DNA from: Takakia lepidozioides | Lineage: Eukaryota > Plantae > Bryophyta | DNA: 64,000 nucleotides | Reading direction: 5' to 3' | Assembly: GCA_030704615.1 (NCBI GenBank) | Contig: CM060732.1 | Span: forward strand, 37,262,001-37,326,000 | Part shown: in pieces, positions 2,189-33,389 of the stretch | Layout of the letters: every line of letters begins with the position of its first letter | Position numbering within the stretch: the first letter of the stretch is position 1 | Position numbers and translations under genes: made by a program | Notes under the pieces: generated by a model | Database searches by the model: none | The model's input: the letters and a program-made list of their open reading frames with translations, nothing else | Told to the model about the DNA's origin: nothing

Positions 2189-2409
2189 AGATGTTTGTTT
2201 GTTTTTGCAATGCTAACAAGCCTGTGAGCTCCGCAAAACACTAAATAGATTGAAGGAACAATCCGGGCAGTCCATGCAACCCCCATCTCCAACGATAGTC
2301 TGTTCCCATAAATTTGCATCCCACGCACACATTGCAAACAGGACAACAGGGACACACAACCATCCCATTTCCAAATTGGCCCCGAATAAAAGCAAAAGAA
2401 AACTTCATA

Positions 2410-5400: not shown

Positions 5401-8400
5401 ATAGTCCTTCTTGTGGCGGTCATCTCTTTCTGGATGTGACTCTCAACACCCTTTGCTGTCTTTCTCTCCTCAGGGGTAGAGCTGTAGTATTACAGTTTGT
5501 CACGCTCTCCTGCATCTACAATGTCTTGCTGCAAGGGAATGCACAAGAGTTGCATCAACCTAAGGGCAAGGGAAACAAACAGAAACAAACATATGGAAGC
5601 AGGAATATCGAAAGGCCAGATGATGGAAGATGTATCTCACCGCGTACATATACTCCATGAAAGCCTCACGGGTCAACGAGTACCACGTTTCTGATGTCTT
5701 GGAGCTTTCACACTTCTTGTACGTCTCTGCTGAAAGGATGGTCTTGAAGTTGGTCAAGGGCATCTGCCCGATCCTTTGTATCATGTACAGTGTGTGAAGC
5801 AGACTTGTTTTGACATGCGATGTCTCCGTCTCTCTGCAGAATGATGTGTGAAAGTCAAAATGAAATTCAAGGACCATCAACAGGGAACTGGAACCAAAGA
5901 ACCACGGAACCACAAGTGGAACATGTAGAATGAGAAACCAACCTGTTCATATCATTCATTGCCATCAGAAGACCCATCATGTCCCGTCACAATCCAACAC
6001 CATCGATCGAACAGAATAATGTCACTCTTCCTCCTATGAGTGCAGCCTCCCAATGACAGCCATCCATGCAAGCAACCGGTGGTTGCCATCCCAAACGTGA
6101 AACATCTTCCTGAGAATGCCTGGGTGGAAGGTTTCCTAGAGAGAAGAAGTTCGAAGGATTTGTTCACCTGTCTCCAAATGGGATCCCAGGAGTCCACGAT
6201 TGACTCATCCACAAGGAGCTCATTGCCTCTGGAATCCCTTGTAGAAACGTAAAAGACTACGGATCCATCCAAATACCCATGAACAAACTCGGCCTCCAGC
6301 TTCAGGATGTCCTTGATGAGGGGTGGACGAACGACGGGCATGGAAACCAACCTACACAGGGGAATCTTCAACCTCCCACCCGGGGCAAGCATACTTTGCA
6401 CCACAAGCTGAGAGTTTACCTTCTGACCACCCAGCATCTCAGCGGCTTTGTTTTCATAGAACTCATCGTCCACATCAACAATGATCTCCTTCCCCTGCCC
6501 CGAAGAGATCTCATCCGCCACACTTTGTATCTTCTCCTGCAGGGTTGTTCATTCAAATTGATATAAGAGAGAGGCATGAAACGATGGTGTTTTGAGCATG
6601 GCAGACAGGCCCTGTGTGGCCCAATTTCTCATCAGAAAACAAGCATTGTGGGGGCCGAAAACACTGTGCGTTGCCGCACAATGTTTCAGCTTCCAAATAG
6701 TGGTGTTTTGAACATGATATTTGGCCCTATGTGGCACATTTCCACAAAAAAAAACAAGCAGAGAGGGGGCGAAAAAGGGGGCAAAAACAGTGTGCGTTGC
6801 CGCACACTCTTCGTGCTTCCAACTGTGTGAGTTTTGAGCATGCATACTAGCCCTGTTTGGCCCAATTTCACATAGAAAAACAAGCATAGAGGGGGCTCAA
6901 AACAGTGTGCGTTGCCGCACACTATCTGAGCTTCCAATAAGGGTTGGATTCAACCTACCAGAGTGGCCCTAGGTGCCCGATTTTCACACCAAAAAACAAG
7001 CAGATAAGGGGGATCAAACAGTGTGCGTTGCCGCACACTATTTGAGCTTGCAATAAGGTGTGATTTTAACAAGGCACAGTGGCCATGAGTGGCCGATTTT
7101 GAAATAAAAGAAAAGGCAGTGAAGGGGGCTCAAACAGTGTGCGTTGGCGCACACTGTTTGAGCTTCCATTTCGGCGTGGATTCAACCTGCCAGATTGGCC
7201 CTAGGTGCACAATATTCATGTCCAAAAACAAGCAAATCAGGGGGCTCAAACAGTGGGGGCTCAAACATTGTGCGTTGACGCACACTATTTGAGCTGCCAG
7301 GTAAGTGTGCATTGAACCTCAAAGACATGCCCTATGTGGCCGATTTTCACATGAAAAAACAATGACAAGGTGGGCTCAAACAGTGTGCGTTGACGCATAC
7401 TGTTTGAGCTGCCAGGTAAGTGTGCATTGAAGCTGAAAGAGATGCCCTATGTGGCCGATTTTCACTTGAAAAAAACAATGACAAGGTGGGCTCAAACAGT
7501 GTGCGTTGACGCATACTGTTTGAGCTGCTAGGTAAGTGTGCATTGAACCTCAAAGACATGCCCTATGTGGCCGATTTTCACATGAAAAAAACAATGACAA
7601 GGTGGGCTCAAACAGTGTGCGTTGACGCACACTGTTTGAGCTGCCAGGTAAGTGTGCATTGAACCTCAAAGAGATGCCCTATGTGGCCGATTTTCAAATG
7701 AAAAAAACAACGACAAGGTGGGCTCAAACAGTGTGCGTTGACGCACACTGCTGGAGCTGCCAGGAAATTATTGATTGAACCTCATAGAGATACCCTGTCT
7801 GGACGATTTTATTGTGAAAAAAACAATGAGAATGGGGGCTCGAACAATGTGCGTTGGCGCACACTGTTGGAGCTTCGAAATAGGGGTGGATTGAACCGGA
7901 CAGAGAGGCCCATGTGTGCACCATTTCGACACCAAAAAACAAGGCATAAGGGGGGCTCAAATAGTGTGCGTTGATCCACACTGTTTGAGCTTCCAATTCG
8001 GGGTGGATTGAACCTGCCATAGTGGCCCTATGTGGCCGTTGGCACATCAAAAAACAAGCAAAATGGGGGGCTCAAACAATGTGCGTTGCCGCACACTGTT
8101 TGAGCTTCCAATTCGGGGTGGATTCAACCTGCCAGAGATGCCGTGTGTAGGCTATTTTCATATCAAAATACAAGCACAACTGGGGTTCACATCACCAATG
8201 AAGCACAAAGGTGGGTCTCAAACATTTTACCTTTTTTTTTTGCTGCTCCAGAAGACTCCCCAATCGCCAGATACCCTTTGCGCTTTGGACTGCTCTGTAC
8301 GCCGAGCATGTTGTGGAGCATCTCCCCCATCCCCTTTTCCACTATCTGGTTCTTCGTGAGTCCAGCATCAACATCATCTTCGGCGTCCGTCTCTCCCTCG

Positions 8401-8603: not shown

Positions 8604-8611
8604 AAACAAGG

Positions 8612-8720
8612 GAGGTTTACTATTTCATGAGCAGAAACCATGAGCCATGAGCCATGAGCCGCATGAGCCGCATGAGCGGTGAGCCGAAGTCTAAGATACG
8701 CGGATTTCATGAGCGGACTC
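8612..8720 (+). repeat. Left TIR and subterminal (C)CATGAGC repeats of element B
   Basis: TATTTCATGAGC..CCATGAGCCATGAGCCATGAGCCGCATGAGCCGCATGAGC; the inverted counterpart is at 23478-23559. Confidence 0.9.
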
Positions 8721-9462
8721 CTCCAAATTTGGAAATGCGGCAGATTAAACAAGTATTAAAATAATAGTTTTTTATTTGACCTTGCCGTTTTTGGACGTTC
8801 CAGATCATGTAATGCGGCGAAGATATGTCGTCAGTAACAAGTCCGCTCATGGTTTTTTAGATCCGCTCATGGAAATAAGTGACCGTGCAACGGGAAATCC
8901 AGTATACCACTGCAAAAGGACGTCGCATACTGGCCTGTATAGAGTATTCCGCGGTTTTACATGCCTTAACATTGGAATGAAGCTGACCCTTTTGCCGCGA
9001 TTGAACCAATGGAGTCTGCACCAATACAGTCTGCAGTACTTTCAACAATTCTGTCTTCTTCGGGTATTCGGCGGGAAAGGTTTGCAACTGAACTGGGAAA
9101 TAAGGTGCCGCATTAGGGTTCGCACGTGCGAAATTTCGGAGCGGTTTGGTGTTGGCGAAGGCCGCCTCTACCAGTACCTACGACGATACTTGGAAATGCG
9201 GCGCCGCATTTCCTTGTCGGAGGTCGAATGAGGAAAGCAAGTTTTCGGAAAGCAGAAAAACATGAACCCTCCAACATACAAAAATACATGCACGTGGAAA
9301 CAAGTGAACGATATAGTATATCTTAGTTCGAGCAAAACAGGTTACTGGTAGGCAAGACATATGTCGGACCTTTCTGTGGCCAGAGTCTGAGGTACTGGCA
9401 GCAGTACAGTTCTACTATCCGAAAAGGATGGGCGTACCATTGTATGGGACCGCAAGCCAAGC

Positions 9463-12400
9463 TCACTGGTCCCCTGGATCCATATTCAGAAGAGTGTGAA
9501 CCTCCTGGGGGGCTCAACCCTGGTGCATGTATGAAGTGATGAGTTGTGGAATTACAACGGAGTCTCTTTAGGTACACGTAGTACAAATGCTTGCAAGGGC
9601 AGTATGATGCCCCCTTGTTCGCCATGATCTGGAAGTCGGTGCAATTGCAGGTGGGTAATTCTGAAATGGTGATGGTGTACACCTCATTGCGAACAGCTGA
9701 GCCTGCCGTGGCCATCTGATACACACGCCCGAATCCTGGTGGGGCACTTCTGTCGAGCTCTGGATTGTACAGTTCATCCGAAGTGCATTCCCATCCTTGT
9801 CTCGTTCACTTTTGAGGGAGGTCGCCGCCTCTTCGGTTTCCCCCAACGGTGTGTAGGATGCTTAGAGCTGTCGTGTCCCATTGTTCTTGCTCTCACAGGG
9901 GTCGGTGGTGGAGGCTGTGGAAGCGGAAATGGTTGTCTGGGGACGTCAGTGCGCGCTGCACCATCCGAAATCCTGCGGCGGTAAGGGCGTCGGCCTCAAC
10001 CTGACTCAGATCGCAGCCTGGTTCCACCGGCCACACCGGGGGAGCCTCTGGCATTGTTTGTATGCCGTACTGGGCTTTCCATACACGCAAGTCATAATGT
10101 CGTGCCTGCAGAACCAGAACTGGGTGGTTGTCGCCTCCGCAAACTTTGCATGGACAAATCTTCCTGTAAAAGTAGGAGCAGGGACAGCCCCATCTGGATT
10201 CCTCCTTATCATCTCTAAACAACGTTGCCGTGTATCCACACGAATTGCGGAACACCTTCCTCGAAACGACGGCTTTGTGCGAGCAATTCTCCACTGTGAT
10301 GCAGACACAGTCGTCCACAATGGCTTGGCCATACTGCATAACAGCGGGCGGAATCTGGGGCAAGGGAGCGGTGGGAATTTTGCACGAAATCCCCGGTTGA
10401 AGGCGACGGCGATCTGGAATTTCTTGGGCTTCCACTGCTGGAAGACACATTGTGCGGCAACATGACGGGACCTCGAGGTGCTGTCCGAATGTTCCTGTCG
10501 GATCTCCAGGAATCCTCTTCGCACCCGGGTTCCTCTTCAATCCTCCGCCTGACAGGGCGAGTCCGGACGTCCCCTCTAGGTGTTCACCTCTGCGGTGCAG
10601 AGGCGTCCCTTTGATCTTCTCTCGCAATGCTGTCGCCCATTTCACTGGATTCTTGGACCTCGAAGCTGTTCGTACCAACAATTCCTCCCTGTCCGGCCCA
10701 AAGCCCCATTGTTTGCCGCTCAGGAACTTGTAGTACGTGGCTTGCTGCATGATTGCTCTGTCGATGTCCTCCGTTGTGGCCGTCACTACGTCCACCAGAT
10801 GTGCGGCAGAAGACGCTCGCCAGGAGGAGTGGACCGATTCTGCCATATTCGTGTTCGGCATGTCCGTGTCGGAATCCAAGCACCGCTCCTAGAAGGACAC
10901 AAACAATGGTGAGGGACCAATCGAAATGTCCGTAACAGAAAGACAAATGAACGAAAAATGACAGCAGCCTACCTCCCGCATGTACTGTCCGAACTGTCGA
11001 TACCGAAAATGCCACCACCCCAACCAGCTGTGCAATGCTCCCAGATTGGTTGTCTCCACTGCACCTGACGTGTTCCACCAAGCCTCGATGATAGCAAACT
11101 TAACCTCCGCGTCATCAAATGTGGGTGCATCCTTCCACGCCGTACAAAGGACACGGTGTTCAGCCTGGAATGAGCTAGCAACAAATTTGGTAGTGTAGTG
11201 GGATAGACTCTGCATCCAATGGAATCCACAGGATCTCTCTTTCCCTCCATTGGAACATTGGGGTCCTCACCGTACACACGCCGCACCGCTGCCCAGTTGG
11301 CCTGAGCGTTGTCTGCCATGAATCCCCTGAAATTGGGCTCTGGCAATCCCGCCCTTGCCATCTGCTCGTTTATGCCCTCCCACAGATGCATCTCGGACTG
11401 TGTGTCCTCCCCTTTCATCTCGCAGATTGCAATCGTCATGAGCCTCTTGGAGTGATAGTCATAAACATGCGCACCCATAGTCACCCACTGATGGTTTGTA
11501 ATTCGCTTGATGTGATCAAACATCACCCAAGCATTCGACAAGTTTCCAGTTGTCATGCGAGTGACCAAGTCGACTCCACTCCCAGGCCCACACGTCGACA
11601 TTTTGAAAATGTAACAACGATCGGATTCGCTGCCTTGCCCTGGAAAAACCTGCTACCTTGGATGTAGTCATATCCAGTCATTCGTTTCACCTCCAGGATT
11701 GAGTACATGTCCGACCCCCTGCCGAACTCCTGCTTGCAAGATACGATGTGATTCCGCACATTCGGACTACAAACGTGCGAGACGGACTCCAAGAGGTCAC
11801 GCATCTCGTCTTCGTCAAGGGCTCTCGGTCGGAACCATCTTCAGACATGATTTTGCCAAGAGCAATCTTGTGGGCTGCCTTCAGCTGAATCTGCTTTGGT
11901 CTGGCTCCGGGGCTCAATTTCACCTCCTCTTTTATGATGTCGTGTGCTTCCTGCACAGCCTCACGCATGTTGCCTCTCGCCAAGGGGTGGCAGTGGACCC
12001 CAACGTGTATGCAAGCTCTAGTCAAGTCCGGGAGCAAATGGATTACGTAATATTGCTTGGCTCTGCACATGGACATGCACGTCGGTGGTTCTTTGCAATG
12101 TGCACACTTGAAAGAACCCGCAGGAGCTTGGCTGGAGACAATGAATGGATGATGCGTTGTGCCAGTCCAATCCGTCTCGTTTCTCCGCCCTCCTTTGGAG
12201 AGAAAGTGGAAGCAGGGGATTGAGGCACCTCAGCTTCCCCGCACAGAGGACATATCGTACACGAACACCATCAGCAATTTTCGTGCTACTGGTCTTCGTC
12301 ACACACCAGGGTGTCCGTCATGCTTTCGATCCATGTCTGTTAACATCCGGAGGCTTTGTTTGACGAAGAAACAGGTGGAAACTCGAAGATGACATTGCCA

Positions 12401-13062
12401 TCGACTTCGGGAGGCAGAAACGTTACCTTTCTGACTGGGAATTTGGCATAGTCGAGAGCAGCCAGCTCGGAGCGAGAACCATCGAGGTGATGTTGTCGTA
12501 GGAGCTGCACAATGGACCGGGTTGGAGTTATGCTCGAGGGCACATGCGTAGCACCTACAGAGACGTCCATGCCGGATTTGAACGACCGTGTGGAGGACAT
12601 GGGTACCTCAATGCAATCATCTTCCTCGTCGGAAATGTCGAATACGTCCACACGAGAAGCTATGGAGGGTCTTGACGGTCCAGGTCGGGAATGATTATCG
12701 TTGCATACCTCTCTGTTGGCAGTGGCCGCCTGTCGGTTTCCGGACTCCTTTGTGGATGGTGTGGGCAGCGACTGATTCGGAAAGGGAATGGGCATTCCCA
12801 CAGCTCGGTACAGGATGGTGTCTGACGGGGGAACGTGCCATTCGATTCCGCAACCTCCGTCGTTACCTAGCACGACAATGGTCTCGTCAACCTGTCCAGG
12901 AACATCCTTCCTTTCTTCTTCCAAATAAACTGTGCCCGGTTTGAGCTTGAATTTGGAACAAAGGTAAGTTTCAGTCACTCTGCAAAGTCCTCCCTCGTTT
13001 GGGATCCAGGCTCTCCCAAGTTGCGGAGGACAGCAAACTATAGCGTAGGAATTCGGAGCCAT
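9463..13062 (-). pseudogene. Element B MULE-type DDE transposase with GCM-like N-terminal domain and C-terminal SWIM finger (frameshifted as assembled)
   Basis: WVMFDHIKR (D1), FMADNAQAN (D2), TNMAESVHSSW (E); SWIM CNCTDF..CPCKHLYYV; N-terminal CAGKLRCLN..CRAKQY..CIHVGVHCHP. One intron at ~10873-10970. Confidence 0.85.
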
Positions 13063-13469
13063 CGAACACCGCACGAGTTGGCAAGTGCGAGGTTCAGTAT
13101 AGCGACAGACCAAGGCTCACAGGCACCATGCGGAGTCCATCGACGATTGGAAGTCGCACATTGAAGTGGAAAGTATTGTTTCAAGCTACATGCATGAAGG
13201 TGGAGGTTTGATTCCATAGCCAGTAAGTATGACAATGATGGCCGATTCGGCGACGAAATAACATCTCTGACAGTTTCTCCTGAGGGTGGATCCAGCAGTA
13301 TTCTCGGTGCAGACAGGAACGTTCGCACTGACAAGTGCCAGGACTTAGTTAAAACGGTCAGACCAAGTTGTGCTCATCAAGACTGGCCGCAATTGTGTTG
13401 TTTCGGAACAATGCAACCCATTGAGGTTCCAGATTTCCCGTCCCGAGTGATTCTTTCGATTGCTGGTGG

Positions 13470-14900
13470 ACGGAAATACGGCGCCGCATTTCCGTATTGC
13501 ATCTTGGTCATGCACCAGAGCGACGGAAATGCGGCACCGAGTTTCCGTCCGGGGAACCTTTATACTCTCCAGAACGGAAATGCGGTAACGCATTTCCATC
13601 CAGCAAGCACCATGGAACGTGGAACGGAAAGTACCGCATTTCCGTTCTGATTGAGAATTATGAACAACGGGAACAGAAATGCGGCACCGCATTTCCGTCC
13701 GAGTCGCACTTTCCGACATTCCTTTTGAGTCTCCAGAACGGAAATGCACGCATTTTCCAACAAGCACGGTATGTGAAGGTGGAACGGAAATGCGGTACCG
13801 CATTTCCGTTCTGATTGAGAATTATGAACAACGGGAACAGAAATGCGGCACCGCATTTCCGTCCGAGTCGCACTTTTCGACATTCCAGAACGGAAATGCG
13901 GCGCCGCATTTCCATTTTGTATCTGATTGGAGCCGGTTCCGACCGCTTGCGCAATTCCGACCAGACATTCATCCAGAACGGAAATGCGGTACCGCATTTC
14001 CGTTCTGACTGAAAATCGTGAACCATCGGAACTGAAATGCGGCAGCGCATTTCCATCCGAGTCGCACCTCCCAACATTCCAGAACGAAATGCGGCACCGC
14101 ATTTCCGTTCTGATGAAAAATGAAACATCGGAACTGAAATGCGGTACCGCATTTCCGTCGGAGTCGCACCTTCCGACATTCCAAAACGGAAATGCGGCGC
14201 CGCATTTCCGTTTTGTATGTGAGGCATGGAGCTGTGGAACGAAAATGCGGCACCGCATTTCCGCCAGCGTCAGACCTTAATACTCTACAGAACGGAAATG
14301 CGGTACCGCATTTCCGTTCTGACTGAAAATCGTGCGCAACGGGAACAGAAATGCGGCACCGCATTTCCGTCCGAGTCGCACCTTCCGACATTCTCGAACG
14401 GAAATGCGGCGCCGCATTTCCGTTTTGTATGCCTGGAACGGAAATGCCGCATTTCCATCCATGTGAGACCTTCAAACTTTCCAGACGGAAATGCGGCACC
14501 GCATTTCTGTCCAGGTGAGACCTCTATACTTTCCGAACGGAAATGTGGCACGGCATTTTTTCATCAACAGGGAACGGAAAACCGCATTTCCGTTCACATT
14601 GAAAATCATGAACCACGGGAACTGAAATTTGTGCCTTCCGTCCGAATCGCACCTTTCGACATTCCAGAACGGAAATGCGGCGCCGCATTTCCCTTTGTAT
14701 CTCATACATGGAGCTGTGGGACGGAAATGCGGCACCGTATTTCCGTTCAACAACTAAGGTATGTGAAGGTGGAACGGAAATGCGGTGCCGCATTTTCTTC
14801 CAACAAGTACGGATGTGTAGCTTCGTGATGGTACTTAACGGAAATGCGGCGCCGCATTCGCATTTTCACTCCAACTCATCAGACGCTGGGACGGAAATGC
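13470..14900. repeat. Array of ~25-30 copies (~52-bp spacing) of the palindrome GGAAATGCGG-NN-CCGCATTTCC between the two divergent genes of element B
   Basis: A perfect 22-mer at 13892-13913 and a perfect 34-bp palindrome at 14182-14215. The linkers fall into a few recurring types. Confidence 0.95.
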
Positions 14901-15204: not shown

Positions 15205-18200
15205 ATGCTCGAACCTGAGAGGGGGGGAGTTCGTGCACCAGACAGGAGACCTCGTCGCAAGCTCCGAAAATTATACTTCGGACGTAGGCCAATGCCGAAG
15301 GGGAGGAAGCAGATGCGTCTACAGGAGGAGATTGCCATCTCCGAGCAGCAGGCCACTCAGGCAACCCAGCCACCAGTGAGAGCTCCATGCGATCGGGGCT
15401 GCGCGCAGCTGATCGAGCACCGAACCCCCCATTTTGCTTCTGTAATTCTTACTGAATGCTAGGAGACTTGAATGCAGAACATGTTTGCATGCCTAACAGG
15501 AAAGGTGGACGTGCTGGAGGGATCGCAGGAATCCGAAGAGCCGCAGGAAGAGTCCGAGGAGCTAGCTGCAGCACGTACACCCACCCGATCCCCGAGCGCG
15601 GGTATTCCTGCCGGGCCTAGCCCTGTGCGATTCAAAGACGCGTCTTCGAAGGGCAAGTTCAAAGCCCAGAGATCGACTCGCGTTTCGGTCATGGAGAATC
15701 GCCAGCAGGGGTCGGGCCCTTCTCCAGCAAAGTCGAAGAAGAAGCAGCCCGTCCCTCTACTGGCTTCTGAACCGGCTCAGGCCGATTCACCCCCCAACGC
15801 GAATGAAGCAGGAAGACAGATTCAATTGCAGCAGACACCTTCACCTGCAAGGATGAGGAAGCAGAAGGCAATCAGGGCGACGGCCGAACAATCTCCCGCA
15901 AAACCGCTTCCACGAGCTGAAGCTCAGTTCCTGGAGGATTTCCCGCCTGCAGATGTTGGGGCCGACTCTGCTGCAGCGAAAGGCAATGGGATCGACCGTT
16001 GATCTCGATTTGGTACCGGAGGAGGGTGCTGCCGCTGAACGTTCGGCAGACCTCACCACCGATGAGCAAGCAGGCCCGGAGGAGGCCTCTGCAATGGCAG
16101 AATTGCCCGCACACAGGCCCCAGAGTGCAGCTCCAGTTGAGGATGCTCCAGCTGCTCAGCCACTACCGGCACCTACAGACATGTCTCCGGAGGATTTCAA
16201 AAGTGCAGCGGATAAAATGTTGGAGGAGACACACAGTAGCATTGGCAGAGTTCTGGGCAGCAGGGTATTCCAGCGGACTCTTCGAATCCCACTCTGTCGC
16301 ATGGTCTCCCTTCCCATCGTCAGGCAGGCCCTTCCCGGAGATGTGGATAAGCTCAAGTTCGCATTTCGAGAAGGGTACCGTCTGGGATCGGCAGCGTTTT
16401 ACGTTTCCATTGAGAATGAGGACGGCGAAACTCGTGGACCCACTGCCGATGAATTGTCAACGTGGGATACCCACTGGCACACTCGCAACCACGAATTCGA
16501 GGCGACGCAATCCGACTTCGGCCATATGTCGGGTAAAATGTTCTTTGTGTGGGACGGGAATCACCGACTTCTCGCCTGGTGGGAGTACATCAAGCAGAAC
16601 CATGCCAAGCACATTGGCTGGCATTACATGGTGGAGTGTGTCATCCTCAAGGTGAAGGCGGCAGACTCCTCCCTCAAGAATGCCATGGCGGACCTCAACT
16701 CGTAAGATACTCATACCCTCCCTAGCACGTTCGAAATGCGGTGCCGCATTTCGGTTTCCATTCTGGTTTGTTTCCGTGCTTCCGTGTACTGAACTGGAGA
16801 GTGTGCCTTGCAGGGTCACTGAGAATGCGTACGTGCATACCCACATGGCACATATGCTGTACAGGGTGAGGAAAACTGGTCTCACTGATCCGCAGATGTT
16901 TGCGGAAATGCTGGAGCCCGAGCTCATTCAGAAAGCCGTTGCAAAAACAGACCGGACATGGTATCGTCTCACTATGGATGGAATGGTGGAGGTGATATAC
17001 GAAGTAAGTCGTCCTCCAATTTCCCTCTGCTCATCCTTCCCCAATTTCCAGTAATCTTTCCACATGAATCGAATGTAACGCTTCTGCATGTTTTTGTTGG
17101 CAGTCAAACATCAAGCTGGATTTGGCCCATGCCAAACGCTTCTTCATGGAAAGTGAGGGGCAGGTCAAAACGTTGCAGTCATTGACTGAGCACTTGAAGG
17201 AAGCCGGTGTCAAGTCCAGAACCAAATACAAGTCAAAGCTTGTGAAGCTGGTGGCAATTGCAGATCGGCACTTGGAAAGGACTTCATCCCCGAGATTGCA
17301 AAACACTATTCTCGGGCCATGCAGCCGACCATGCAATTGGAGAAACTGCATCACCTCTCAACGGCATGTGTGGAGGCGAAAGAGAAGGTGAGGTTTCAAT
17401 GCACTGAAGTTCCTTCCTAGCAATAGCCACTCTCTTCCACTGACATTGGATCGGAAATGGCAGACACGGTGGCTGTCGATCTGGAATGCATCCGAGAGCA
17501 TAAGGACAATGTGGTCTTTTCCACTGGAAGTTTCCGACCCTGCAGTGGATGTGTGGCTCAACCGCATGACTTGGTGGTTCCAGGTAATTCAAGGTACTTC
17601 CCCAGATTTGCTTTTCTGACATGAATTCCCTGAACTGCTACGTGACAATGCATTTGGGAATCGCAGGTAATGTCGAATGCGAAGGAGCAAGTCGTAATGC
17701 ACACAAATTCGTTCGGCTTGTACGTCAAATGGGATGGAACACAGACATTGGAAGACTACGTGACACGTTTCAGATGTGCGTACAAGGACAACCTTTTCGC
17801 CAGAGCTACAGACAGCAAGAAGGAGCGTGGAGTTTACACATCAGGAGGGAGCGGGGAAAGCTGCAATGCGAATTGTTTACAGGTGAAGCACAGCTGCCCT
17901 TGTATGCGAAGCCTGGTTACGAGGTTTGTCTCGGAAATGCGGCACCGCATTCGCATTTTATGTTTTCGGTGGCACTCTGCCAGTAGGTTGGTCTCAATTT
18001 TGCTCACGCATGCTGACTGCCTTGCAGGTATATGAAATACGTGCTCCTTCAGACAGGGGCCCTGGCTCAAGAGCCCCCGTTCTTCATGGCTTGGACCGTG
18101 GCGGGCCCAAGCTGTGTCTACACACCCGAGATGCAGAAACAATGGCATCCCGCGCATCTCGTTGGATGCCCGTGGTACCTGGATGTCTGGCGGTTGTTGA

Positions 18201-20331
18201 CGAGTCTGAGAAAAGATCTGCACGCCTTGGCAGAAGAGAAGAGAAAGGAAAGACGTGTCCCTGCTGGCCAAAGTCGGCAAAGGATCTGCTGCTCTGGAAG
18301 AATCAGAAAGGCAGCTGAGATGGCACAAAAGAGGTGGATGCAGCTGTGCAGGCCCAACAGAAGGGGTCGAAGAAGAGGACTCGCCAGCAAGGAGCAGCTG
18401 TTGTGACCCCGCCAAAACGAAGAAGCAGAAAAACAGCTGTTCAGGAAGAGGGTGACGAAGAGGACTCCGATGGAGATTTGCAACCAGCCACCCCAAACGC
18501 AGGCTGCCTCCCTGTCCTACAGTTGTCACGAGAGGCACGAGAACTGGCTCGGCAAAGAAAGCATCTTCAACCCCCAGGGGCGCACCCTTTGAGCCGGTGG
18601 AAATGAGGAGGCGAAGTGGCTCCCGAAACAGTAGTCCAGTGTGTAAATGAGAGTTTCTTGGCGCTTTGTGATGGACGGGCAGCCAAGTTGGCATACATGA
18701 AGACCATGGAGGGTCTGAAGGGCAGAGCACTGAAGAAGGCGACTGCCGAAGAGCCTTCCGACACCCCAGGATTTCAGGAATATGGTCTCGTTCTTTGTGA
18801 GGGTGTGTGCAGACAAGGATTGTAGGAGGGGCGGAATGCCACCCGAGGTGGTCTTGCGATATGATCATCTTGGATATTCCGGACGGAGAGCCTGTGGAAG
18901 GACTGCAAGCTTTGCCCATCTTGGAACAGGAAGGTACTCGGAGGACTTTTGGAAGAAAGGATTCGGGCTTGCCCGCATGGTGTTGGACGACAGAAGGCTG
19001 TGTGGTTGTCTTGGCGAGCAGAGGAAAAAACACTCAGACAGGAATTGCGAAGTGGACCCGCAAGAGCGCCGTCCGATGCATCAACACACGGGCTTCGGTC
19101 GGAAGGAAGAAGGTGATTACGACAATGGCACTCGTCCATTGTTTGCTTGGGGGTTTTCAAATGCGGGCCGCATTCGGTTCTAATCGTTCCCCCCTGTGTA
19201 TGCAGACGAAGCAGTTCGATGCATACTGCTTTGTGAAGGAGAACTCCACCTTTGCTTCCGGAAGGAGGGAGGAAAGGTGACCCGAATGCACCCCCGATTA
19301 CGACGTTCTGTCAACAACGTTCCCAAGGAACTTCCCCTCATAGCCTCACTCAACGGAACCCCTGCGGTACTCACGGACTCGGAGCCCTGCCTTCATTCAG
19401 ACAATTATGGGGACATGCAACAGACGTGGAGGGCCAGTGCTGGACCTCATCTGTGGGACGGGTATGAAGAATCTTGATCTATGCTGTTCTGAAATTTCTC
19501 GTTATGATGTAGTTCGCACATCTGAAGCGCCATTTGTAATGTGTGGATGGCATTGTAACAGGTGCCTCAAATGTGGGCTGGGCGGTTTCCGACCGGCACC
19601 TCTTGCCTACGGGAGGATTCATCCGTGTGGGGATCCCATCGGGAAGGCTGCAACGGAATGTTAAGGCTCCCAACAGAGCGGAAGTCTCCTCGGATTCGTC
19701 GGAGTCCGAGGAAGACACAGTGAACATGATGCGGAGGAGAACCCGGAATACGAGAGTGAGTGCAAACATTGTAAGTTTGCAAAAGCTTCTGGGTCATTTT
19801 TATCAAACGAATTTCCGGACTGTGGTTCTCATTAGTCTCGTTGTGATGATTGTCATGTGCAGGATTACAGGGTCCGGGTCGAAATATGTAGGGCCTACAC
19901 TTCCTGTAGGAAGAATGTCCCGTTCTTTGCGAAGGCCGACTTTCATGACGAGCCCGGTGAGGGACTACTCCCTTCCTAGTTATGCAGCTAAACTCGCAAA
20001 TACAGCGATTAGAAGAAGTGAGAATCCAGTAAAGTAGAGCAGATTTTGGAGGGGGGCTAGGAGGACAGAAGGATAAGGAAAGAGTTGGCAGCAGCTCAGA
20101 CAGGTAGACGGGTACGAAAGTACATATGTGATTCAGCGGATGAGAGCGACGCAGACAGGGCGGAAGACGACCCAAACGGAGGTGAGATGGACAGTTCCGC
20201 AAGGGGAAGATGGGATTTTTGAAAGCCAAGCCAACGAGCAGTCCGCTGGAGATGAGAAAGGCAATGAGGGGGTGGAGGCGGAGCAGGATAGTCTAGAACA
20301 GGATGAGGATTCGGATGATTTTCAAGATTAA
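15205..20331 (+). pseudogene. Element B multi-exon ParB-like + beta-class DNA amino-methyltransferase-fold gene (frameshifted as assembled; start approximate)
   Basis: Low-complexity N-terminus; IPLCRMVSLPIVRQ..MFFVWDGNHRLLAW (16280-16580); middle exons homologous to A (RWLSIWN/KWLQIWN; WHPAHLVGCPWYLD/WGPDHLSACGWYLD); DMIILDIPDG (~18858-18887); RSPAFIQTIMGTCNRRGGPVLDLICGTG (19380-19461); intron 19462-19561; GASNVGWAVSDRHL; acidic tail. Confidence 0.8.
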
Positions 20332-20464
20332 TAGAATTTTAATGAAGTCTCTGTAAATGTAAATTCTCTTCCAGAGTATATAAAGGAAATTCTCCCCGAC
20401 ATTCGTGACCCCTCTCCAGTGTGCATTCCAGCCACACAATCGCCCAAACCACGACGCTCCCAAA

Positions 20465-23477: not shown

Positions 23478-23559
23478 TGCTCATGTTTTTTTCCACACTT
23501 ACGACTCTGCTCATGGCTCATGCCGCTCATGGCTCATGGCTCATGAAATAGCAGCCCCC
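23478..23559 (-). repeat. Right TIR and subterminal GCTCATG repeats of element B
   Basis: GCTCATGGCTCATGCCGCTCATGGCTCATGGCTCATGAAATAGCAGCCCCC. Confidence 0.9.
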
Positions 23560-26500
23560 AAACAAGGGCTCCCCACGCTGCCTCTAGAGCTCTCCAGTTT
23601 GACGTTTGCAACAAGGGTTGCTATGGCATGTAACCAAAATAAAAATTGGACATTGTTAACCGTATTTGGATGCGGGTGTCATCATTGTGTGCGAACGGAA
23701 TTCATCCATTTTCGGCGTCTTTGTATTATCCAAGAAATAAAGTGGTAGAAAAAAAGTAGATCCATTGCATGTACTTGTGATATATGTCAGATGTACTTCG
23801 CCGCCTGCTAATACATGGCAGCCTTCTTGCATTCTTTCAAATTCGGAAGTGCCGTAGAAATCTAATGCTAGTTCAATTTCGAGCAGTACTTGCAGATTCG
23901 CAATAATTGTTATGCTTCACATTTGCATCCACGTGTGTTGTACTGCCTACCCTGTGGTTTGTATTTCGCTGTCACCATCGCAATGGGGTCATTCGGTGTA
24001 AAGGGTTGTGTCGGCAATGGTCATGTGTTGCACACATTCATGCGAGGTGTCTCCCGGAGTGTCACTATTTGTGCTGTGCTCTTCTGGCACAACACAACCT
24101 CATTAGATTCGGGGTCTTCCTCTTTACTGCTCTCCAGGGTTGTTGCCGTCTTTCCATAATGGATGGTTTTATGTCATGTTCAGGGTTTGTTTTTCATCCA
24201 CATACAGCACGGCTTCTTGTGGCTTCTTGTCTTAGAAAACAGTTTTTCTGGTTGGTGTCTCTCAGCGTGGTTGTCTGCGAAGTTCGGTGCATGTCATTCC
24301 TACATCCTTTGCATGCATCGCCCGCAGTCTTTGGGTCAGTGCTACCCTTATTGACCTCAGTTTGTTTGGGGTGGATCCCCTTTCGAGAATTACGGGCTAT
24401 CAATTCAGGGATTCCGTTGTGAATCGCAACTTTCGGTCAGTGTAAGAAAACATGTCCAGGGAGCGAGATAGACTCGCTCGATTTCATTCCAGTGCAGGTA
24501 GTCTTCCACTGACTACCACAGCAGATGACGATGGGTTTGCAGTTGTTCATGAGGATGAGCTGGTTACAGTGTTCCCGCTGGAATTGGGTTCTCTGCTTGT
24601 TCAAAAAGAGGTGTATGACGAGGATGGGAATTTAGATTCTGGGCACTTGGAGAAACCATTGGTTGGCGAGTGTGGAAGGAAGTGGAGAGTCCTTCCAGGC
24701 ACATACCGGGTCCTTGGAAAAGAGAGAAGACAATCAGTAGGATCAGTAGCTACCCCTGGCACTGCAGCATCGGTCGTGCAGCAGAAGGGCACAGTTCATG
24801 TGAAACAAGAGATGAATACATCCACTACATTCATGACTCTTTCAGACTCGTCCTCGGAGGATGTTTCTGAGATTCCTCCGCCAGTGCAGACTCCATTCTT
24901 GGATGATGACGAATTGCAGGAGATAACGAGTGTCATTCCGAAATTGAAAGCCCTCGCATGGGTGCCTGGGTGCAAGAGCGAGCTGCGTTTTGTTGATTGG
25001 GAGTCCCTTCGTGTGCAGCGGGCTCAATACGTGCCAGCAGAGTTTGATGGGGACATCTTGTTTGAGCTCAACCCTCCCACATCTTCCAGTGGACTAGCTG
25101 GGCTTCTGCAGGGCATGGACAAGAAACATGACGGACACCCTTGGTGCAGGACAAAAACGTCGAACATCCACAACGACATTGGATTGAAATTTCGAAGATC
25201 GGTTTGCATTGGGCATTGCAAATGCGTGAATATTTCTTGCCCTCGCCTGAGAAACAACGCTAAACCAAACGAAAGTGAGTGGGAAGGTGTGCCCCTGAAT
25301 CCTTTCACCCCAGGGCTTGCCCCTCCCAAGACCAATACTTTTGTATGCAGGTTCTGCAAACTTTCCTCGTCCTGTGTTTATGTGTGCCACGCTCGTATGT
25401 ACCAGGTGGCACACCGATGCAAGACAATGACTCGTGCCTGCATTCATATGGGTATACACGAGCATCTTGTGTCCAAAGGAAGTTGCAGGGATAGCGTGGA
25501 CATCACTAGAAATCTGCTGAAGCGGGAGTTCCACAATGCCCCTTGTGCAACACCTTCTGCTATAGCGCTTGCAGCTAGCAAGGCATTCCTGGAAAAACAC
25601 ATACTGGGTGAAGGGGATGCGACACAACCAATGCTGGATGTAGATTTGCTTGATGCAGTGATGGACCATTTCTCCGTGTTGAGCTCTCCCAATATTCGAA
25701 ACCAAGTGAATGCACTCAGAATGGGCACAAGTACTGCTGGATTCATAGACAACATTATGGACCTCAAACGGAGGAGTCGCTATGAATTCATTCAAAACAG
25801 TATGTTCTCTGGCCAGGGCTCGTCCAAGGTGTATTTGTTCAAGATGTCCACAGTGGGCGAAGGCAGTGGTGTGAGCATTGTCCGCAGAATGCAACCTGGA
25901 GGAGATTTGGCAAAATGTTGGTTAATGTTTGATCACTGCAAACGGGTGAAGGGTTGGACAACCATGGCGTGTCATGTGTACGATCCAGCGTACCAGCGTG
26001 TGCTCTCCATAGCAATTTGTGATATGAAGTCGGAGGACACTGAATCCCAAATGCTCATGTGGAATTCGCTCCTGGCCATCATGCAGCGCAATGGAATACA
26101 AAACACAAATTTTGCGGGCTTCATGGCTGATAGTGCACAGGAAAATTTCAATGCAGTGCGGCGCGTGTTTGGTTCGGGGGATCCTAAGGTCCCAATGGAA
26201 AATAGGGAGCGCACATGCCTCTTCCATTGGAGTCAATCTTTGGCACGTCATACAAAGCGCTACATTCGCCCTGACCTTCAGTTGGAGCACAGAAGGCTCT
26301 GCCTCAAGTACAAAAATGCCACCTCAATGGGAGAAGCTGAGAGCACTTACTAAGCAATCCGGGCTTGGTGGTTCTCCTCTAGTGCTGCTACTGGTATCCA
26401 CCTGAAGGAGTTGGAGGACTGGTTGGTTTTCTGGCACTTCAGGTACAGACAGTGGGGAGCTTTCATGACGACGGTAAGCCTCTTCAATCCCAGAAATAGA

Positions 26501-27194
26501 AATTTCACTTTGCATCGTGCCTGTTCATTTGGGGTTGTTGGATTGTCACTTACAGAACCTCTTCCATTTCCTTTCGTTCCTCACATTTCCATGCGATGCC
26601 TCCTGCAAGACATGTCATTGGAGGACTTGGCCGACATGCCATCCTGTAATTTGGCGGAGACTATTCACAACGCCTGGATGCAGCAGTCTACCAAAGCAGG
26701 ACGTGACTTGTATGTGGCCACTGCTGATGACATGGTGCAGGCACTTACACAACAAACCAGGTACCGCAATTTTCTTATAGGACGGGTTGGAGGCAAGGGC
26801 CCTGATACAACTTTGTTGATGCTAAGGGCTGCGAGTAGGTCCGGAGACCCATCGAAGATGGCCAGAGCTTTGAACAGGTGCATTGAAGGCTCCCCTTTGC
26901 AATCCAGACTCCCCCAAGGAAAAGGAAGGCGAGGAAAGATTTGGATCATGCAAAAGGAAATTGAACACTCCTCCAGGGTCGGATGGAGATTCCCATCGGC
27001 CGGACAGGGTCAATTTCTCTGTACCAAAGGTGTCTCTAGTGCAGACTAAGTCGTGTGCCCGCCCCTTCCTAGGTGGGTCCTCCTCTAGTGGAGCAGGTGC
27101 AGATCATGCAAGCACGGCAGCAGGAATCCCATTGGAGGAGGTGGTGGCCATGGTGCATGAATCTGATTGCATTGATAGTGAGTGGCATATAGAA

Positions 27195-27901
27195 CGCACC
27201 TCCCTTCGATAAGCTCCCCTTCACGTCATAGTTACTCGCTTTGATGCGCGCGCCTGACTCCCAACCTGGCCGCCGGGCCAACTTGGAGCTTCGGCTGCTC
27301 ACCGGGACATAACGGTCCCCCCTTCGCTTCTCCCAAAGAACCCTCCACCGATTTGGAACCAACGGGAATTCCCTTTGGTAGTTGGCAGTCCGGAACAACT
27401 CCCCACTCTTTGGTCGCTTTCCGGCTCGCTCGCTTACTCGCTAGTTTTTGGTCATCAACGGGCTTGCACCGTTCTCGAGGTTACTACTCCCTATATATAC
27501 TTCTGTAGCTGTCCGTGGGGGTTTCACAACCAGCCATGCCATTTTATGGCGAACCACCATGAAGACCCTCGATTCCCGGTGGTGAGTCGCGGTGAGTCTT
27601 GGCCCACTCACCGCGGCCCCAATGGACCGTGATGAGTCCCAAGACTCCCCACGACTCCCACCTCGAGGTCTCCACCCCATGGTGAGTCCTATGTCACCCC
27701 CACTAAGTCCCGCTAAGCTACCACCACCCCTTGTGGAGCCACCCCCACCGCAACCCGATGTGCGGGGCTCCACCTAGTGAGCGCATCCGCCTCCTTGAGT
27801 GCCTTGGGCACTCAAGGGTGCTTCAGCCCCCGTACCTATCGCTACTACTGCCCCCACCACAGGGGCAGCCCCTCTTGTGTCCCGACCCCCCCCTGTCCTC
27901 A
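27195..27901 (-). repeat. 3' LTR, clipped at both ends
   Basis: Near-identical to 33395-~34085. Lacks the first 5 bp (TGTCG) and the last ~18 bp; no adjacent polypurine tract. Confidence 0.92.
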
Positions 27902-28771
27902 TCGACTTGTCCATTTTGTAGAAACGAACATCCAAGTTGTGGCGTCCCACATCAAGGAGTTTGTTTCCGTACCATGGCGTCCCATGGCAAAGAACCAAAC
28001 CCCACACTTGACTCTACTCTCCACTAGCTAGTTCGGCCGACTTCCTCCAAGTCCCGGCCAAGGGTGGAGCCTCTCAAGCTCCTCCCAGTGCACTCTTCTT
28101 GGCCTACTTCAAGGCCAAGGAACGATCCTCCCCGAGGATCGAATCGCCTTACTGCAACAACATTGCTTGCGACCGCTCATGATGCCGCTTTTGGCATCAC
28201 CTTGAGCAAGGGTTCCCCGGAACCCTCTTTGACTAGGAAGAGAACCTTGAACCAACCGTGCGCCCCAATCACTACAATTGGGTCCGCCTTGGAATGCTGG
28301 CCTGAGGTACGAGAACACGCCGAAGCCGCACTACGACTTCGTCCCGAGGCTACACGATTATAGTATGTGAACAGAAGCACGTAGCTTCCGCGTTAGCCCG
28401 CACTGCAAGGCAACCCCCTCGGTAGCGCAGTTATAGTATGCGCACGCGCCAGGTGTGCACTAGCACATGAACTCCCAAAGAAGGCGCAAGTTTCCTTGCC
28501 CTTGGATGGGGGTCACCCGATTTCGGCACTACGCAAACACACGATTAACCCAATTTACCTCTCCCACTTTTATAAGCTAGCATGCATTCTACACACTAGC
28601 CAACCACACCATGCATCACCATTCCAAACAAAATAGGACGCACAACATTTGGAATCCATTTCATTTATAGCACGTTTTGTACAATACAAGTTTTTGCAAT
28701 CGGATTCCTAAGCTAGCTAAGCCGGGCTAAGCATGCATTTCCTCCCCCACGCTCCAAGGTTGATGTCCCCA

Positions 28772-31700
28772 TCAACGCTTCTTCCGCTTTTGAGGTCGCC
28801 CTTCGAAAGCTGCAACCGCCTCGGATGCGTTTCCCATTTCTGAGGCACGCACCCAAGATGCCTCCATATGATGATAGCCCTTCCATTTGACGAGATACTC
28901 CGTTTCTCGGTTCCTGAACCTCCTCGACTTAAGTATTGCCTCCACCTCGTACTCAGGTTCATTTTCATGATCCAACAGCATAGGTGGCGGACGCAACACT
29001 TGATGCCGATTCGGACGCGCTTCATCTTTGAAGTAAGGCTTCAAAAGGGAGACATGGAATACTAGGTGCACTTTGCTGTTTGCCGGCAGCTCCAATTCAT
29101 ACACATCCTTATTCATAACCTTCCGAATGCGAAAGGGTCCCGCATACGGAGGTACGAACTTCGGACTCACTTCCGGAGGTAGTCGGAAATTCTTGATGTT
29201 CGACCAGACCTCTGTGCCTGCATCAAACTTCACTTCCCTCCGCTTCCGATTCGCCTGCCTTTCATACCTTTTCCTAGCTTTGGCAATATTGTACTTTGCG
29301 AGCTTCAACAAACGTTCGCGTTCTTCCAGTACCGCCGCTACTGCCGGTTCCTCAACGTCCTGGGCGGCCCAACTTGTCGGCACCAGAGGTGCTTTTCCAT
29401 AGACCAATACGAAAGGGGAAACTCCCGTTGCGGAGTGTTATGTGTTATTATAACAGAACTCAGCCGCGTCTAAGTGTTCCATCCAGTCTGATTGGTCTGC
29501 CGACACGTAATTCCGCAAGAATTGCTTCACTACGGAATTCACTCTTTCCGTTTGGCCGTCCGTCGTAGGTTGGAAGGCGGTGCTCATCATCAGCCTCGTC
29601 CCCATCTTCTTCCAAAGTGTCCTCCAAAATTTACTCGTAAACTTTGGGTCGCGATCCGAGACAATATCCTTCGGGACTCCATGATGCTTTAAGACGTGGG
29701 CGAAGTAAAGTCACCCTGTCTCCTGCGCCGTTGCCGTCTCCTTGGTGGGGATGAAATGGCCCATTTTACTGAACCTATCCACCACCACCATGATTGCATC
29801 GAATCCTTTTGACAGCGGCATAGCAGTCATGAAATCCATCGAGACGCTTTCCCAAGTCCCCTCTGGAATCGGCAAGGGTTGTAACAGCCCCGCTTGCTTT
29901 TTGTACTCACTCCGGTTTTGTTGGCATGTGGTGCATGTCTTGACATACTCCTCTGCCTCCTCCCTCAGTTTGGGCCAGAAATACTCTTTCTTCAGGAGTG
30001 CCGCAGTGCGCTTGGCTCCGCCGTGGCCCGCAAGCGGGCTATCATGGCATTCTCTCAAGAGGCTGTCTCTGATCCCTCCCTTCGGCACGTAGAGACGCTT
30101 TTGCTTATACCGGAGCAGTCCATTTTGCAAGTGGAACTGCGATTTAACCCCCATCCTCAAGTCCTGCATCACGGACTTCGCCAGCTCATCCTTCTGGTAA
30201 GCCTTCCGGATCTTCCTTTGGAGCGCCGTCTCGCCCTTGTACACCAACAAGAGCTGCTGCTTTCTACTTAAAGCATCGGCCACCACGTTGTCTCGTCCCG
30301 GTTTGTACTGGATATCCACGTCGAACACCGCCAAAGTATCTTGTCACCTAAGTTGTTTTGGGGATAACTTGGGCTGCGTGGCAAAATACTTCACCGTGAC
30401 ATTGTCCGTGAACACCTTCACTGGGTTGGAACCAACATAGTGGCGCCAAAGCTCAAGACAGTGCACCACCGCCTTCATCTCTTTTTCGTGCGTCGGCCAC
30501 CGTCGCTCCACTTCATTCAGTTTCTTACTTTCGTAAGCCACTGGACGTTCATCTTGCATAAGTACACCCCCAATCGCGAAGTCCGACGCATCTGTATGAA
30601 TCTCAAATGGACGATCGAACTCCGGGATTTTCAAGACTGGAGCTTCCGCCATCCGCTGCTTCAATTCAGCAAAAGCTTGGCCACAAAAGGTGTTCCATAC
30701 CCAGACTTTGGATTTACACAGAAGGTCTGACAGCGGCCCCGCAATCTTGGCGAAATTTCTCACATACTTCCGGTAATAGGAGGCGAGTCCTAGGAAGGAT
30801 CGCACTCCCGGGACCAAAGTCGGAGGCTCCCAGTCCAAGATCGCCCTCACCTTTCTGTCATCCATTTTGATCCCATCCTATGTAATCACATGCCCCAAGA
30901 ACTCCACTTTTGTGACCCCGAATTTGCACTTTGAAGTTTTGGCATATAGCATCCCTTCCCGCAATTTTTGGAACACCTTTTTCAGGTGCTCCAGGTGCTC
31001 CTCCTTTGTTTTTGAGTACACCAAGATGTCGTCGATGTACACGATCAAAAAGTCATCCAACCACTCCTGGAAAAGGTTGTTCATCAACGTGCTAAATGTT
31101 GCTGGTGCATTGGTGAGCCCAAAAGGCATCACCAAGAACTCATATGAACCATACCTTGTCTTGCACGCGGTCTTCTCCTCATCTCCTTCCGCCACCCGAA
31201 TTTGGTGATAGCCGTAGCGCAAGTCGATCCGGCTGAAATACTTCGCTCCTGCCAACCGATCGAAGAGGTCGTCGATCCTTGGCAAAGGGTACCGGTTTTT
31301 GATAGTCACCTTATTCAGAGCCTTGTAATCGACACACATCCGCAGCGTCCCATCCTTCTTGTCTGCAAATAGCACCGGGGCTCCGTAAGGTGACTTACTC
31401 GGCCGGATGTACCCCTTTGACATTAGATCCTTGAGCTGAGTCTTCAGCTCGACCAACTCCCTGTGGCTCAACCGGTAGGGTGCCTTGGCAGGCGGTTCCG
31501 ATCCTGGTATCACCTCAATCTTGTGGTCAACTCCTCTTCGCGGTGGCAAGCCGCTTGGTAAATCCTCCGGCATCACATCTTGGTATTTCTCCAAGATCCC
31601 CTTGATCCAATCTGGGCTCGGCTCCCCATCGCCTTTTCCCTTCACTTCTCTAATGTAAAGCAAAAACTGGGGCTCGTGTGCCTCCTCCACGGCCCACTCC

Positions 31701-33334
31701 CTTGCTGACAGAAGGTTTATTCGCCCTCCCACGGATTTGGGCGTTTCCGACACTCTTAAAACCTCGCCACCATTCCCACATGGCAGCGTGACCACTCTCT
31801 TGCGGCCATCTACGACCGCTCTGGATTTGCTCAAAAAGGTCATCCCCAAAATGAGATCCACTCCATCGATCTCGCAGATGGTGAAGTTCTCACGTCCCTC
31901 CCAACTCCCCAGTTGAAGAGGAACATCAAACGCCAACCTTGTCGCCAACTGTGGTTCTCCTTTGGCAGAACGCACCTCAATAGAGGCCCCCACGTCACTT
32001 GTCGGGAGTCCCAACTTTTGCGCCGTCACCGGCGTCATGAAGGAGTGCGACGCTCCTGTGTCCACCAACAACGACACGTTAGTTCCGGATATTATCCCAT
32101 CCACGAACAATAATTGACTCCCTTTACGCAGGGCGCCAGTTTCCTGATACAACTCACAAGAATAGTTGCCTACCTTGCAAGTCCTGGCGACCACCGCTTC
32201 CACCAAGCGACTGATGGTATCTTCCGACAGCTCCGTGGTTGCCCGAGTCATGTTCAATTGACGAGGTTTTGTGCACTTCTTGGCCATGTGCCCGGGCTCC
32301 CCGCAATTGAAACACACTCCATCAAAGGTCGCCTTCTGTCCGCCATAAGCCGCTCCACCCGCTTTTCCTTTCGAAGCACCGGGTGCCGCCTTGACGTGTG
32401 AAGGCCCTCCCTTCGATTTCCACGTGCCATTGTCGCCGCGTGGCCTATCCCACTTCTTTTCCGGTCGGAAGGTGTCACCTTCCTGCCGGGTCTTCTTGTG
32501 GTTCAGCTCCGTACGGCCTTGTCTCTCACCCCTAGGGACATCCGAGAAACATTCAGCCCTCTCAATTGCCTCGTTCAAAGTCTTGGGTGGCTTCTCCTCC
32601 AACTTCCGCCTGGCCCATGGGGCCAGTCCCGCCACAAAGTTGAAGACCATTTTTGGTTCAGCCATGTCCGTGACTTCGAGCAACAGCACATTGAAAGCCT
32701 GGACATACCCCCGAATGTCATCTGTTTGCTTCAAATTCCTCATCTTGTCCCAGGCAAGCCAGGACGCGTTGAGGGGCACAAACTGTCTCTTCATCAATTC
32801 CTTGAACCCACTCCAGTTCAAGGTTTCCGGGCTTGGGCCTCGGTCGTGAAGGCGTTTCTGCCACCATTGTTGAGCATAGCCCCTCAAATAGGTGGGAGCC
32901 ACTTCCACCCGATCCTCGTCACTCAACTTGGCCGCCCGGAAATACTACTCTAGCTCCAGGAGCCAGGTGTTGAGTGCCTTCCGATTTCGGACGCCCTTGA
33001 AGGTGCCGGGTTCCTTAGGCTTCACCTTAAACTTTGCCTTAGTGGAAGTGGCATTAGCCGCCTTCAACACGTCTTTCAACGTCCCGCCAAACTGCGCCAA
33101 CAACCCTTCCCGAAAGGCTGCCGGCATGGGAGGCATCTCTTGGTTTGTCGGAACTCTCAAGGATTCCTCGGGCTCCGACTCCTCGGATTCCTCCCGCTCT
33201 TGAGCGGCCTCGTTTTCGGAAACATGCATCGCTTCCTCAAACGGCCGCCTCGGTGACACGTCGCCCCCATCGGGCTCACCAGGATCATCGTCTTTTGGGC
33301 CGTTCCGCTTTCGCTTCGGCTTGCCCGACCCCAT
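28772..33334 (-). pseudogene. gag-pol polyprotein with chromodomain, broken by nonsense mutations
   Basis: CCHC knuckle [14 protein letters not shown], protease [19 protein letters not shown], RNase H TDASDFAIG, integrase H..H/C..C, GPF motif, chromodomain YEVEAIL..YLVKWKGY. In-frame stops at 32945, 30878, 30344 and 29711. Confidence 0.96.
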
Positions 33335-33389
33335 GATGAGGCCAATCCCAAGGACGATCGCGTACTGAACTCTAAGCTCTGATACCAAG

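Follow-up and report, generated by a model that had tools for sequence, protein, structure and literature searches.

A ParB and methyltransferase-fold fusion gene carried by a Mutator-like transposon of Takakia lepidozioides, a candidate regulator of its own element

The closest described precedent for the gene considered here comes from the giant transposons of red algae, Mutator elements included, in which a ParB-domain protein (PAG3) adjoins inverted-repeat arrays and an N6_N4 methylase (PAG2) is a further accessory gene; the Bostrychia preprint on these elements proposes that the transposon ParB protein binds the adjacent arrays and modifies its own element (bioRxiv 2025.02.11.637652). Phages carry fusions of ParB with N6_N4 methyltransferases (bioRxiv 2025.10.10.680097, PMC4738411) as well as dioxygenases activated by ParB (PMC13229309), and in the VANDAL elements of Arabidopsis the VANC protein has family-specific tandem targets and demonstrated anti-silencing activity (PMC5735166). 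We describe a ParB-methyltransferase (ParB-MTase) gene in 64,000 nucleotides of Takakia lepidozioides DNA (GenBank assembly GCA_030704615.1, contig CM060732.1, positions 37,262,001 to 37,326,000), a stretch called the window throughout and numbered from its first letter. The gene lies in a 14.9-kb Mutator-like DNA transposon (element B, 8613-23559) with terminal inverted repeats (TIRs) and an 8-9 bp target-site duplication (TSD), which is inserted within a related element, A. Our leading, still tentative reading is that it encodes an accessory protein of a Mutator-like family that binds its own palindromes and regulates the chromatin of the element, in the manner of VANC, and that is not a canonical amino-methyltransferase.

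The likeness to the Plavaka and Mutator elements of red algae lies in a ParB accessory protein by repeat arrays together with a methylase accessory gene. In the algae, ParB is fused to a 2-oxoglutarate oxygenase and the methylase (detected by PF01555) to a SET domain, in separate genes, whereas the land-plant gene puts both into one chain and has a motif IV of the form D-x-P-E/D; the two systems were compared by description only. The ParB-MTase gene is a variant of the already known ParB/methylase transposon accessory genes, and its novelty is lowered because the Bostrychia preprint is so close a precedent. The phage fusions have the same domain order, ParB and then a beta-class MTase, but the plant gene differs from them in its long middle region, its introns, its transposon context and its non-canonical motifs IV and I. 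With VANDAL elements the likeness is one of layout: a Mutator-like element has an accessory gene, and its non-coding DNA contains repeated motifs specific to the family. The anti-silencing demonstrated for VANC is one that we infer for the plant gene. A literature search, with subscription journals largely uncovered, found no description of this ParB-MTase transposon family.

The original prediction, made from the letters alone, had seen the gene at 16280..19620 but had missed its transposon context, a 15-kb element reaching well beyond those coordinates, and the palindrome arrays particular to each element. The gene in element B is laid out as follows.

15292..20331, forward strand: gene for ParB, middle domain, linker and beta-class MTase fold, in about ten exons (start codon and last exon presumed)
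16280..16701, forward strand: ParB/Srx-fold domain, PLCRM..VR, with DGNHR at 16553-16567 and M..LN at the exon end
16814..18226, forward strand: middle region, conserved in relatives, with exons from 16814, 17104, 17464, 17667 and 18028; candidate DNA-binding part
18873..18887, forward strand: motif IV, DIPDG (within MIILDIPDG), which lines up with DPPYN in CcrM and M1.HpyAVI
19380..19461, forward strand: motifs X and I, RSPAFIQTIM...VLDLICGT (VLDLICGTG from 19437, DLICGTG from 19443)
19562..19620, forward strand: exon that supplies the final Gly of motif I as well as motif II (GASNVGWAVSDRHLL), followed by a frameshift

Six-frame translation finds DGNHR, DIPDG, RSPAFIQTIM and DLICGTG where they had been predicted, as well as the motif II-like RHLL (near 19590-19605); motif I is split by an intron at 19462-19561. 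The reading frame is broken repeatedly, with at least three frameshifts within the motif IV exon alone. Element A has a second copy.

2400..6548, reverse strand: diverged ParB-MTase-fold gene of element A, with stops and frameshifts

Its motifs lie on the minus strand at 6090 (DGNHR), 3772-3758 (DIPDG) and 3183 (the counterpart of the RSPAF/VLDLICGTG segment). The two copies are colinear, with about 30-50% identity in matched segments, and in both of them, as in two intact relatives, L001 and L081, GT-AG introns sit at matching points: behind the ParB domain, behind the exon that follows it, behind W-x-Q and within motif I. Because the copies are colinear with each other and with intact relatives and have these intron positions in common, the motifs are not due to chance.

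Relatives were drawn from metagenomes (the best 80 of 104 loci, which collapse to 38 groups). L001 splices from nine exons, all with AG/GT ends, to 983 aa without an internal stop and with DIPE as motif IV; L081 splices from six exons to 1018 aa, with DGNHR at 138, DVPE at 754 and DITASTG at 940. These reading frames are computed splices, not transcripts, but each is a single open frame with ParB and MTase in one gene, as had been predicted, and to judge from them the fusion is real, though the window copy is frameshifted. Captured cargo without function, its motif change mere drift, would account for the stops or frameshifts in both window copies and in most of the 80 loci, which are old, degenerate copies. 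Such a reading is very improbable and already disfavoured by the conservation pattern: L001 and L081 remain intact while being 30% identical over about 990 aa, the MTase profile finds 883 representatives and the ParB profile 874 proteins, and columns are strongly conserved as against a variable linker.

The lesions of the window copy were followed in contigs from four runs, which cover all 30 bins. Even the best-supported indels are missing from a large share of contigs, often from all of them in the smaller runs (best 12 of 129), and in the two DNA runs covering the motif none of the substitutions listed for 18780-19780 at 10% or more falls in DIPDG. Many lesions thus look copy-specific, and decay and local assembly error both fit. 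General assembly error as the cause of the frameshifts finds no support in the gypsy long terminal repeat (LTR) pair of the window (14 transitions, 1 transversion, 3 indels). Thousands of short contigs map to this stretch, which is compatible with a multi-copy family and implies no copy number. From two presumed-RNA runs came a single unspliced contig apiece and zero exon joints, and the splices reported here are computed.

Among 28 clusters examined for a species name, 2 had one: Ceratodon purpureus, with gene models KAG0605740.1 and KAG0624017.1 that begin downstream of the ParB part, and Calypogeia fissa, with CAM6105413.1, which is the ParB part alone; because so few clusters bear names the taxonomic range is thinly known. 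On these sequence matches, the transposon family spans mosses, liverworts and Takakia. The gene had been predicted to be of bacterial or phage origin, which remains plausible, but no donor and no close relative was found in viral contigs (two sets of pattern matches, 41 and 30, with 0 relatives), in the prokaryotic genomes (1 relative, L081, among 7 pattern matches) or by tblastn against phages (best only E 0.3 matches to DNA methylases). L081 (618-4160) is an intact, intron-bearing, plant-type member inside a cyanobacterial metagenome-assembled genome, and is likely plant DNA contaminating that assembly; its five GT-AG introns at family positions led us to reject it as a prokaryotic donor.

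Since the gene in the window is frameshifted, the MTase fold was judged on a relative, P0065, whose AlphaFold model has a mean predicted local distance difference test score (pLDDT) of 68, with most of the MTase part at 80-95. In Foldseek the model matches CcrM at E 1.4e-13, and its structural matches are to M.BceJIV (Z 19.5, root-mean-square deviation 2.7, 220 residues aligned), CcrM (19.4), PvuII (18.6) and N4CMT (18.2), with MT-A70 enzymes at Z 13.6 or lower. The predicted Rossmann MTase is thus borne out at the level of a model, and the beta-class order IV ... X-I-II agrees with the motif positions and the profile alignment. Sequence searches were far less telling: no fragment or relative scored above cut-off in Pfam, PHROG or NCBIfam, the best PF01555 score was 20.8 bits (gathering score 26.7; 3 of 11 proteins at E 0.02 or better), and among PDB sequences no match reached E 0.001, the best being M1.HpyAVI (E 0.0085). 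Atlas matches of the MTase exon, at 0.83 or lower, are a lead only.

The family shares fold and motif order with CcrM, M.BceJIV, M1.HpyAVI, M.RsrI and M.PvuII but departs from them in sequence (12-19% identity), with DPPY/SPPY replaced by DxPE/D and FxGxG mostly by T-A-S-T-G. Profile alignment sets DIPEGL opposite DPPYNL and HPTQK opposite GAREK, so that the His of motif X is lost. Motifs were counted in the 150 matches listed (the top 150 of 883), of which 109 cover motif IV and 38 motif I. The first position of motif IV is D in 88 of 109 and the third is P in 87; the fourth is E in 62 and D in 26 (acidic in 88 of 109), K in 9 and aromatic only once (W). Among D-x-P members it is acidic in 61 of 70 and aromatic in none. 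The altered motif is therefore a family trait, as first proposed, although the literal DIPDG is not: the family motif is D-x-P-[E/D], which departs from the canonical (D/N/S)PP(Y/F/W). Only 3 of 38 sequences retain the first Gly of motif I (S or A in 33) and 1 the Phe; the last Gly is present in 32. Substitution of the motif IV Tyr cripples DPPY enzymes. In the N4CMT model this Tyr stacks the target base (PMC10406627). Rotifer N4CMT and Marchantia DN4MT1 likewise have a prokaryotic-type beta-class fold in a eukaryote, but they are described as host genes with SPPY and demonstrated activity, without ParB and not as transposon cargo (bioRxiv 2021.02.12.428880, PMC10406627, PMC8885841). The proposed link to these N4C enzymes found no support beyond the shared fold: SPPY occurs in none of the 109 motifs, and the matches to CcrM/M.BceJIV and to N4CMT lie within 1.3 Z.

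A rival with a serious, though smaller, claim is that the protein is an active DNA-modifying enzyme guided by ParB, writing N4-methylcytosine, N6-methyladenine or another mark on its own element and so blocking silencing by 5-methylcytosine (5mC). It is doubtful on present evidence, as is the chemistry it would call for, in which the target amine would still be held by the motif IV Asp and Pro, with either the new acid or a conserved Trp standing in for Tyr. In its favour, the whole fold is kept, as are the motif IV Asp and Pro in most members; segment X-I is the one most strongly conserved, GxG persists in the window copy, and two Trp residues are close to invariant (W348 in 105 of 107, W403 in 100 of 107); phage ParB-N6N4 MTase fusions, ParB-activated phage dioxygenases and the red-algal PAG2 methylases offer precedents. 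The uniform lack of an aromatic residue at the fourth position in D-x-P members speaks against it, as does the loss of the motif I Phe and first Gly and of the motif X His. A composite in which a parS-loaded sliding clamp, gated by a nucleoside triphosphate (NTP), is joined to an active D-x-P-E MTase-fold enzyme that writes a non-5mC mark on its own element is unlikely; if true, a prokaryote-type partition clamp would have been reused as a transposon-private epigenetic writer.

The ParB domain could be modelled from the window's own exon (pLDDT 86.7). Its matches in the PDB, among those listed, are ParB, Noc, PadC, KorB, Srx, SerK, SbnI and a pair of uncharacterised proteins, with E 0.016 and probability 1.0 for the best, and the rank-2 match in BFVD is a phage 'DNA methylase'; Atlas clusters are ParB/Srx-like (0.94) and DUF3723 (0.91, 31% of members). 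The GxxR box is accompanied by an upstream Arg and a downstream Asn, which we take to be functional residues of ParB/Srx proteins. Across 114 sequences, G126 and N127 are present in all, H128 and R129 in 113, R48 in 111 and N173 in 113, counts that are biased by the query profile, as those for the MTase motifs are. The box itself is named for ParB in bioRxiv 2025.10.10.680097. The motif and the weak but uniform Foldseek matches uphold the predicted ParB domain as a modelled ParB/Srx fold.

The palindromes lie around and between the genes.

13470..14865, no strand: main array of GGAAATGCGG-YR-CCGCATTTCC, period about 53 bp, specific to element B
9193, 16733, 17934 (the latter two intronic), 20469-21190 and 22283: further sites of the element B palindrome
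6664..8102, no strand: element A array of ACAGTGTGCG-TTGN-CGCACACTGT, 13 copies, period 116 bp

The element B palindrome has 37 sites within the element and 0 elsewhere in the window, whereas 50 shuffles never gave more than 1. A third palindrome has six sites in the related locus L002, and those of elements B, A and L002 all differ, although B (13470-14865) and L002 (1559-2455) have a common CGG-YR-CCG core, a candidate CG/CHG-rich methylation-sensitive site. By analogy with VANC, the protein likely shields its own element from silencing by binding these repeated palindromes. In this scheme, every functional step of which we infer, the middle region would recognise the palindromes as ParB does parS; the near-invariant GNHR site would bind an NTP, whereupon a dimeric clamp would close and spread over the 15-kb element; and the MTase fold would keep its cofactor pocket and DNA-binding loops and, deprived of the stacking aromatic, would bind or flip bases without ordinary N4/N6 methylation. 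On balance, host silencing by 5mC would be lost locally and the divergent transposase would be expressed, which is what VANC brings about in VANDAL elements.

Several observations weigh against this self-regulatory reading. A strict scan (perfect palindromes, 7-bp arms, at least 3 copies) is positive in 5 of 80 loci only, and the arrays could equally be read as transposase sites. The ParB fold is matched weakly (E 0.016 at best in PDB and 0.002 in BFVD, nothing reaching E 0.001), and the matches include the non-clamp enzymes Srx and SerK. The query profile itself held DIPE, which biases the motif counts toward it. Asp in motif I (37 of 38) and Glu in motif II (9 of 10) are retained, the window copy has kept GxG (DLICGTG), and X-I is the best-conserved segment, with 51% mean pairwise identity as against 38% for IV-VIII and 19% for the linker (nine long members, three near-duplicates removed); the conservation of X-I and of these two acids fits a live S-adenosylmethionine site.

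The protein might instead be a transposition helper, its clamp on the arrays bringing the ends or the transposase together, as proposed for TnpA or MURB, and leaving silencing unaffected. The tight head-to-head linkage to the transposase would suit such a role, as would arrays placed both between the two genes and 3' of the ParB-MTase gene, and TnpA is needed for Spm transposition (bioRxiv 2026.08.24.746577). We consider it quite unlikely: the majority of sites are kilobases away from either end and two are intronic, as expected of chromatin coverage and not of synapsis, and retention of the MTase fold would be left unexplained. In falling order of probability, we thus place the VANC-like self-regulator first, then the active writer, the transposition scaffold and the inert cargo.

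The remaining features of element B are these.

8604..8612, no strand: left TSD AAACAAGGG, abutting the left inverted repeat (8 bp when its final G is assigned to the TIR)
8612..8680, no strand: left TIR, imperfect, with CATGAGC repeats; 17 of the first 21 bases agree with the right end
9323..13116, reverse strand: transposase in pieces, presumably Mutator-like, head-to-head with the ParB-MTase gene
21642-22082, reverse strand, and 22345-23049, forward strand: two similar open reading frames (ORFs) inside element B
23491..23568, no strand: right TIR (to 23559) and TSD (23560-23568)

AAACAAGGG is the sole 9-mer common to windows of 120 and 140 bases at both ends (8604, 23560), and 8639-8669 matches 23545-23515 in inverted orientation (31 bp, 97%). 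Element B thus has both the TIR and the TSD of a Mutator-like element, in which the TSD is typically 9 bp (8-11). Its transposase comprises a Cys/His N-terminal region, acidic motifs (MFDH / FMAD / E) and SWIM; in both window transposases the MULE-type (Mutator-like element) acidic motifs and SWIM were recognised by eye, SWIM at E 0.024, under the cut-off, and the core matched nothing in Pfam, PHROG, NCBIfam or PDB. The assignment of both transposases to the Mutator class accordingly draws on TIR, TSD, motifs read by eye and a sub-threshold SWIM, and is probable at best; a MULE transposase with C-terminal SWIM is a described architecture (PMC1702500). In 22 distinct locus groups at least 5 kb of upstream DNA is available; the transposase is divergent in 9, runs in the same direction as the gene in 1 and gave no match in 12. 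The ORF pair at 21642-23049 has no credible match in Pfam or PHROG and none in the 80 related loci.

24446..34950, forward strand: transposase of element A (24446-27140 and 34100-34950, the latter with SWIM), with a Ty3/gypsy insertion between the halves

This transposase, near 24.4 kb, was at one stage taken for that of element B and dropped in that role once TIR and TSD were located. Excising element B in silico rejoins element A, whose ParB-MTase gene (reverse strand) and transposase (forward strand) then stand head-to-head. Just 3' of the ParB-MTase gene of element A, a broken ORF with a second ParB-like motif, RFFVIDGQHT, lies at 1946-2212 on the reverse strand and runs on to about 1330; it aligns to the family ParB profile (hhalign) at a probability of 35% over 23 columns and may be a further accessory gene.

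Sequence-specific anti-silencing by transposons has so far been demonstrated mainly in flowering-plant elements (VANC, TnpA), and the family would be a candidate that can be tested in early land plants, made of prokaryote-type parts. The predicted pairs of protein and site differ between elements, and the Ceratodon gene models make the family testable in a tractable moss. The family also provides a probe of the role of the 'invariant' aromatic, since it comprises hundreds of naturally occurring beta-class MTase folds that lack this residue. Taken with the red-algal cassette, it suggests that giant transposons of eukaryotes repeatedly pair ParB with palindrome arrays.

The window has further features. 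The Ty3/gypsy element within the element A transposase (27141-34100) has a chromodomain-like end and LTRs that are 95% alike, and a related solo LTR lies on the opposite strand at 42938-43668. ORFs at 38300-41510 resemble the transposase of another DNA transposon (DKMD...KT..P; LYLQMDNSAKDNKN; HTHEDID motifs), presumably of the DDE type. A decayed integrase-like retroelement fragment occupies 1-900 (reverse strand). A host gene with KTGGLGDV, which we take to resemble granule-bound starch synthase, lies at 54845-60550 (reverse strand), and 61204-62055 is a 424-bp tandem duplication with one difference between its copies.

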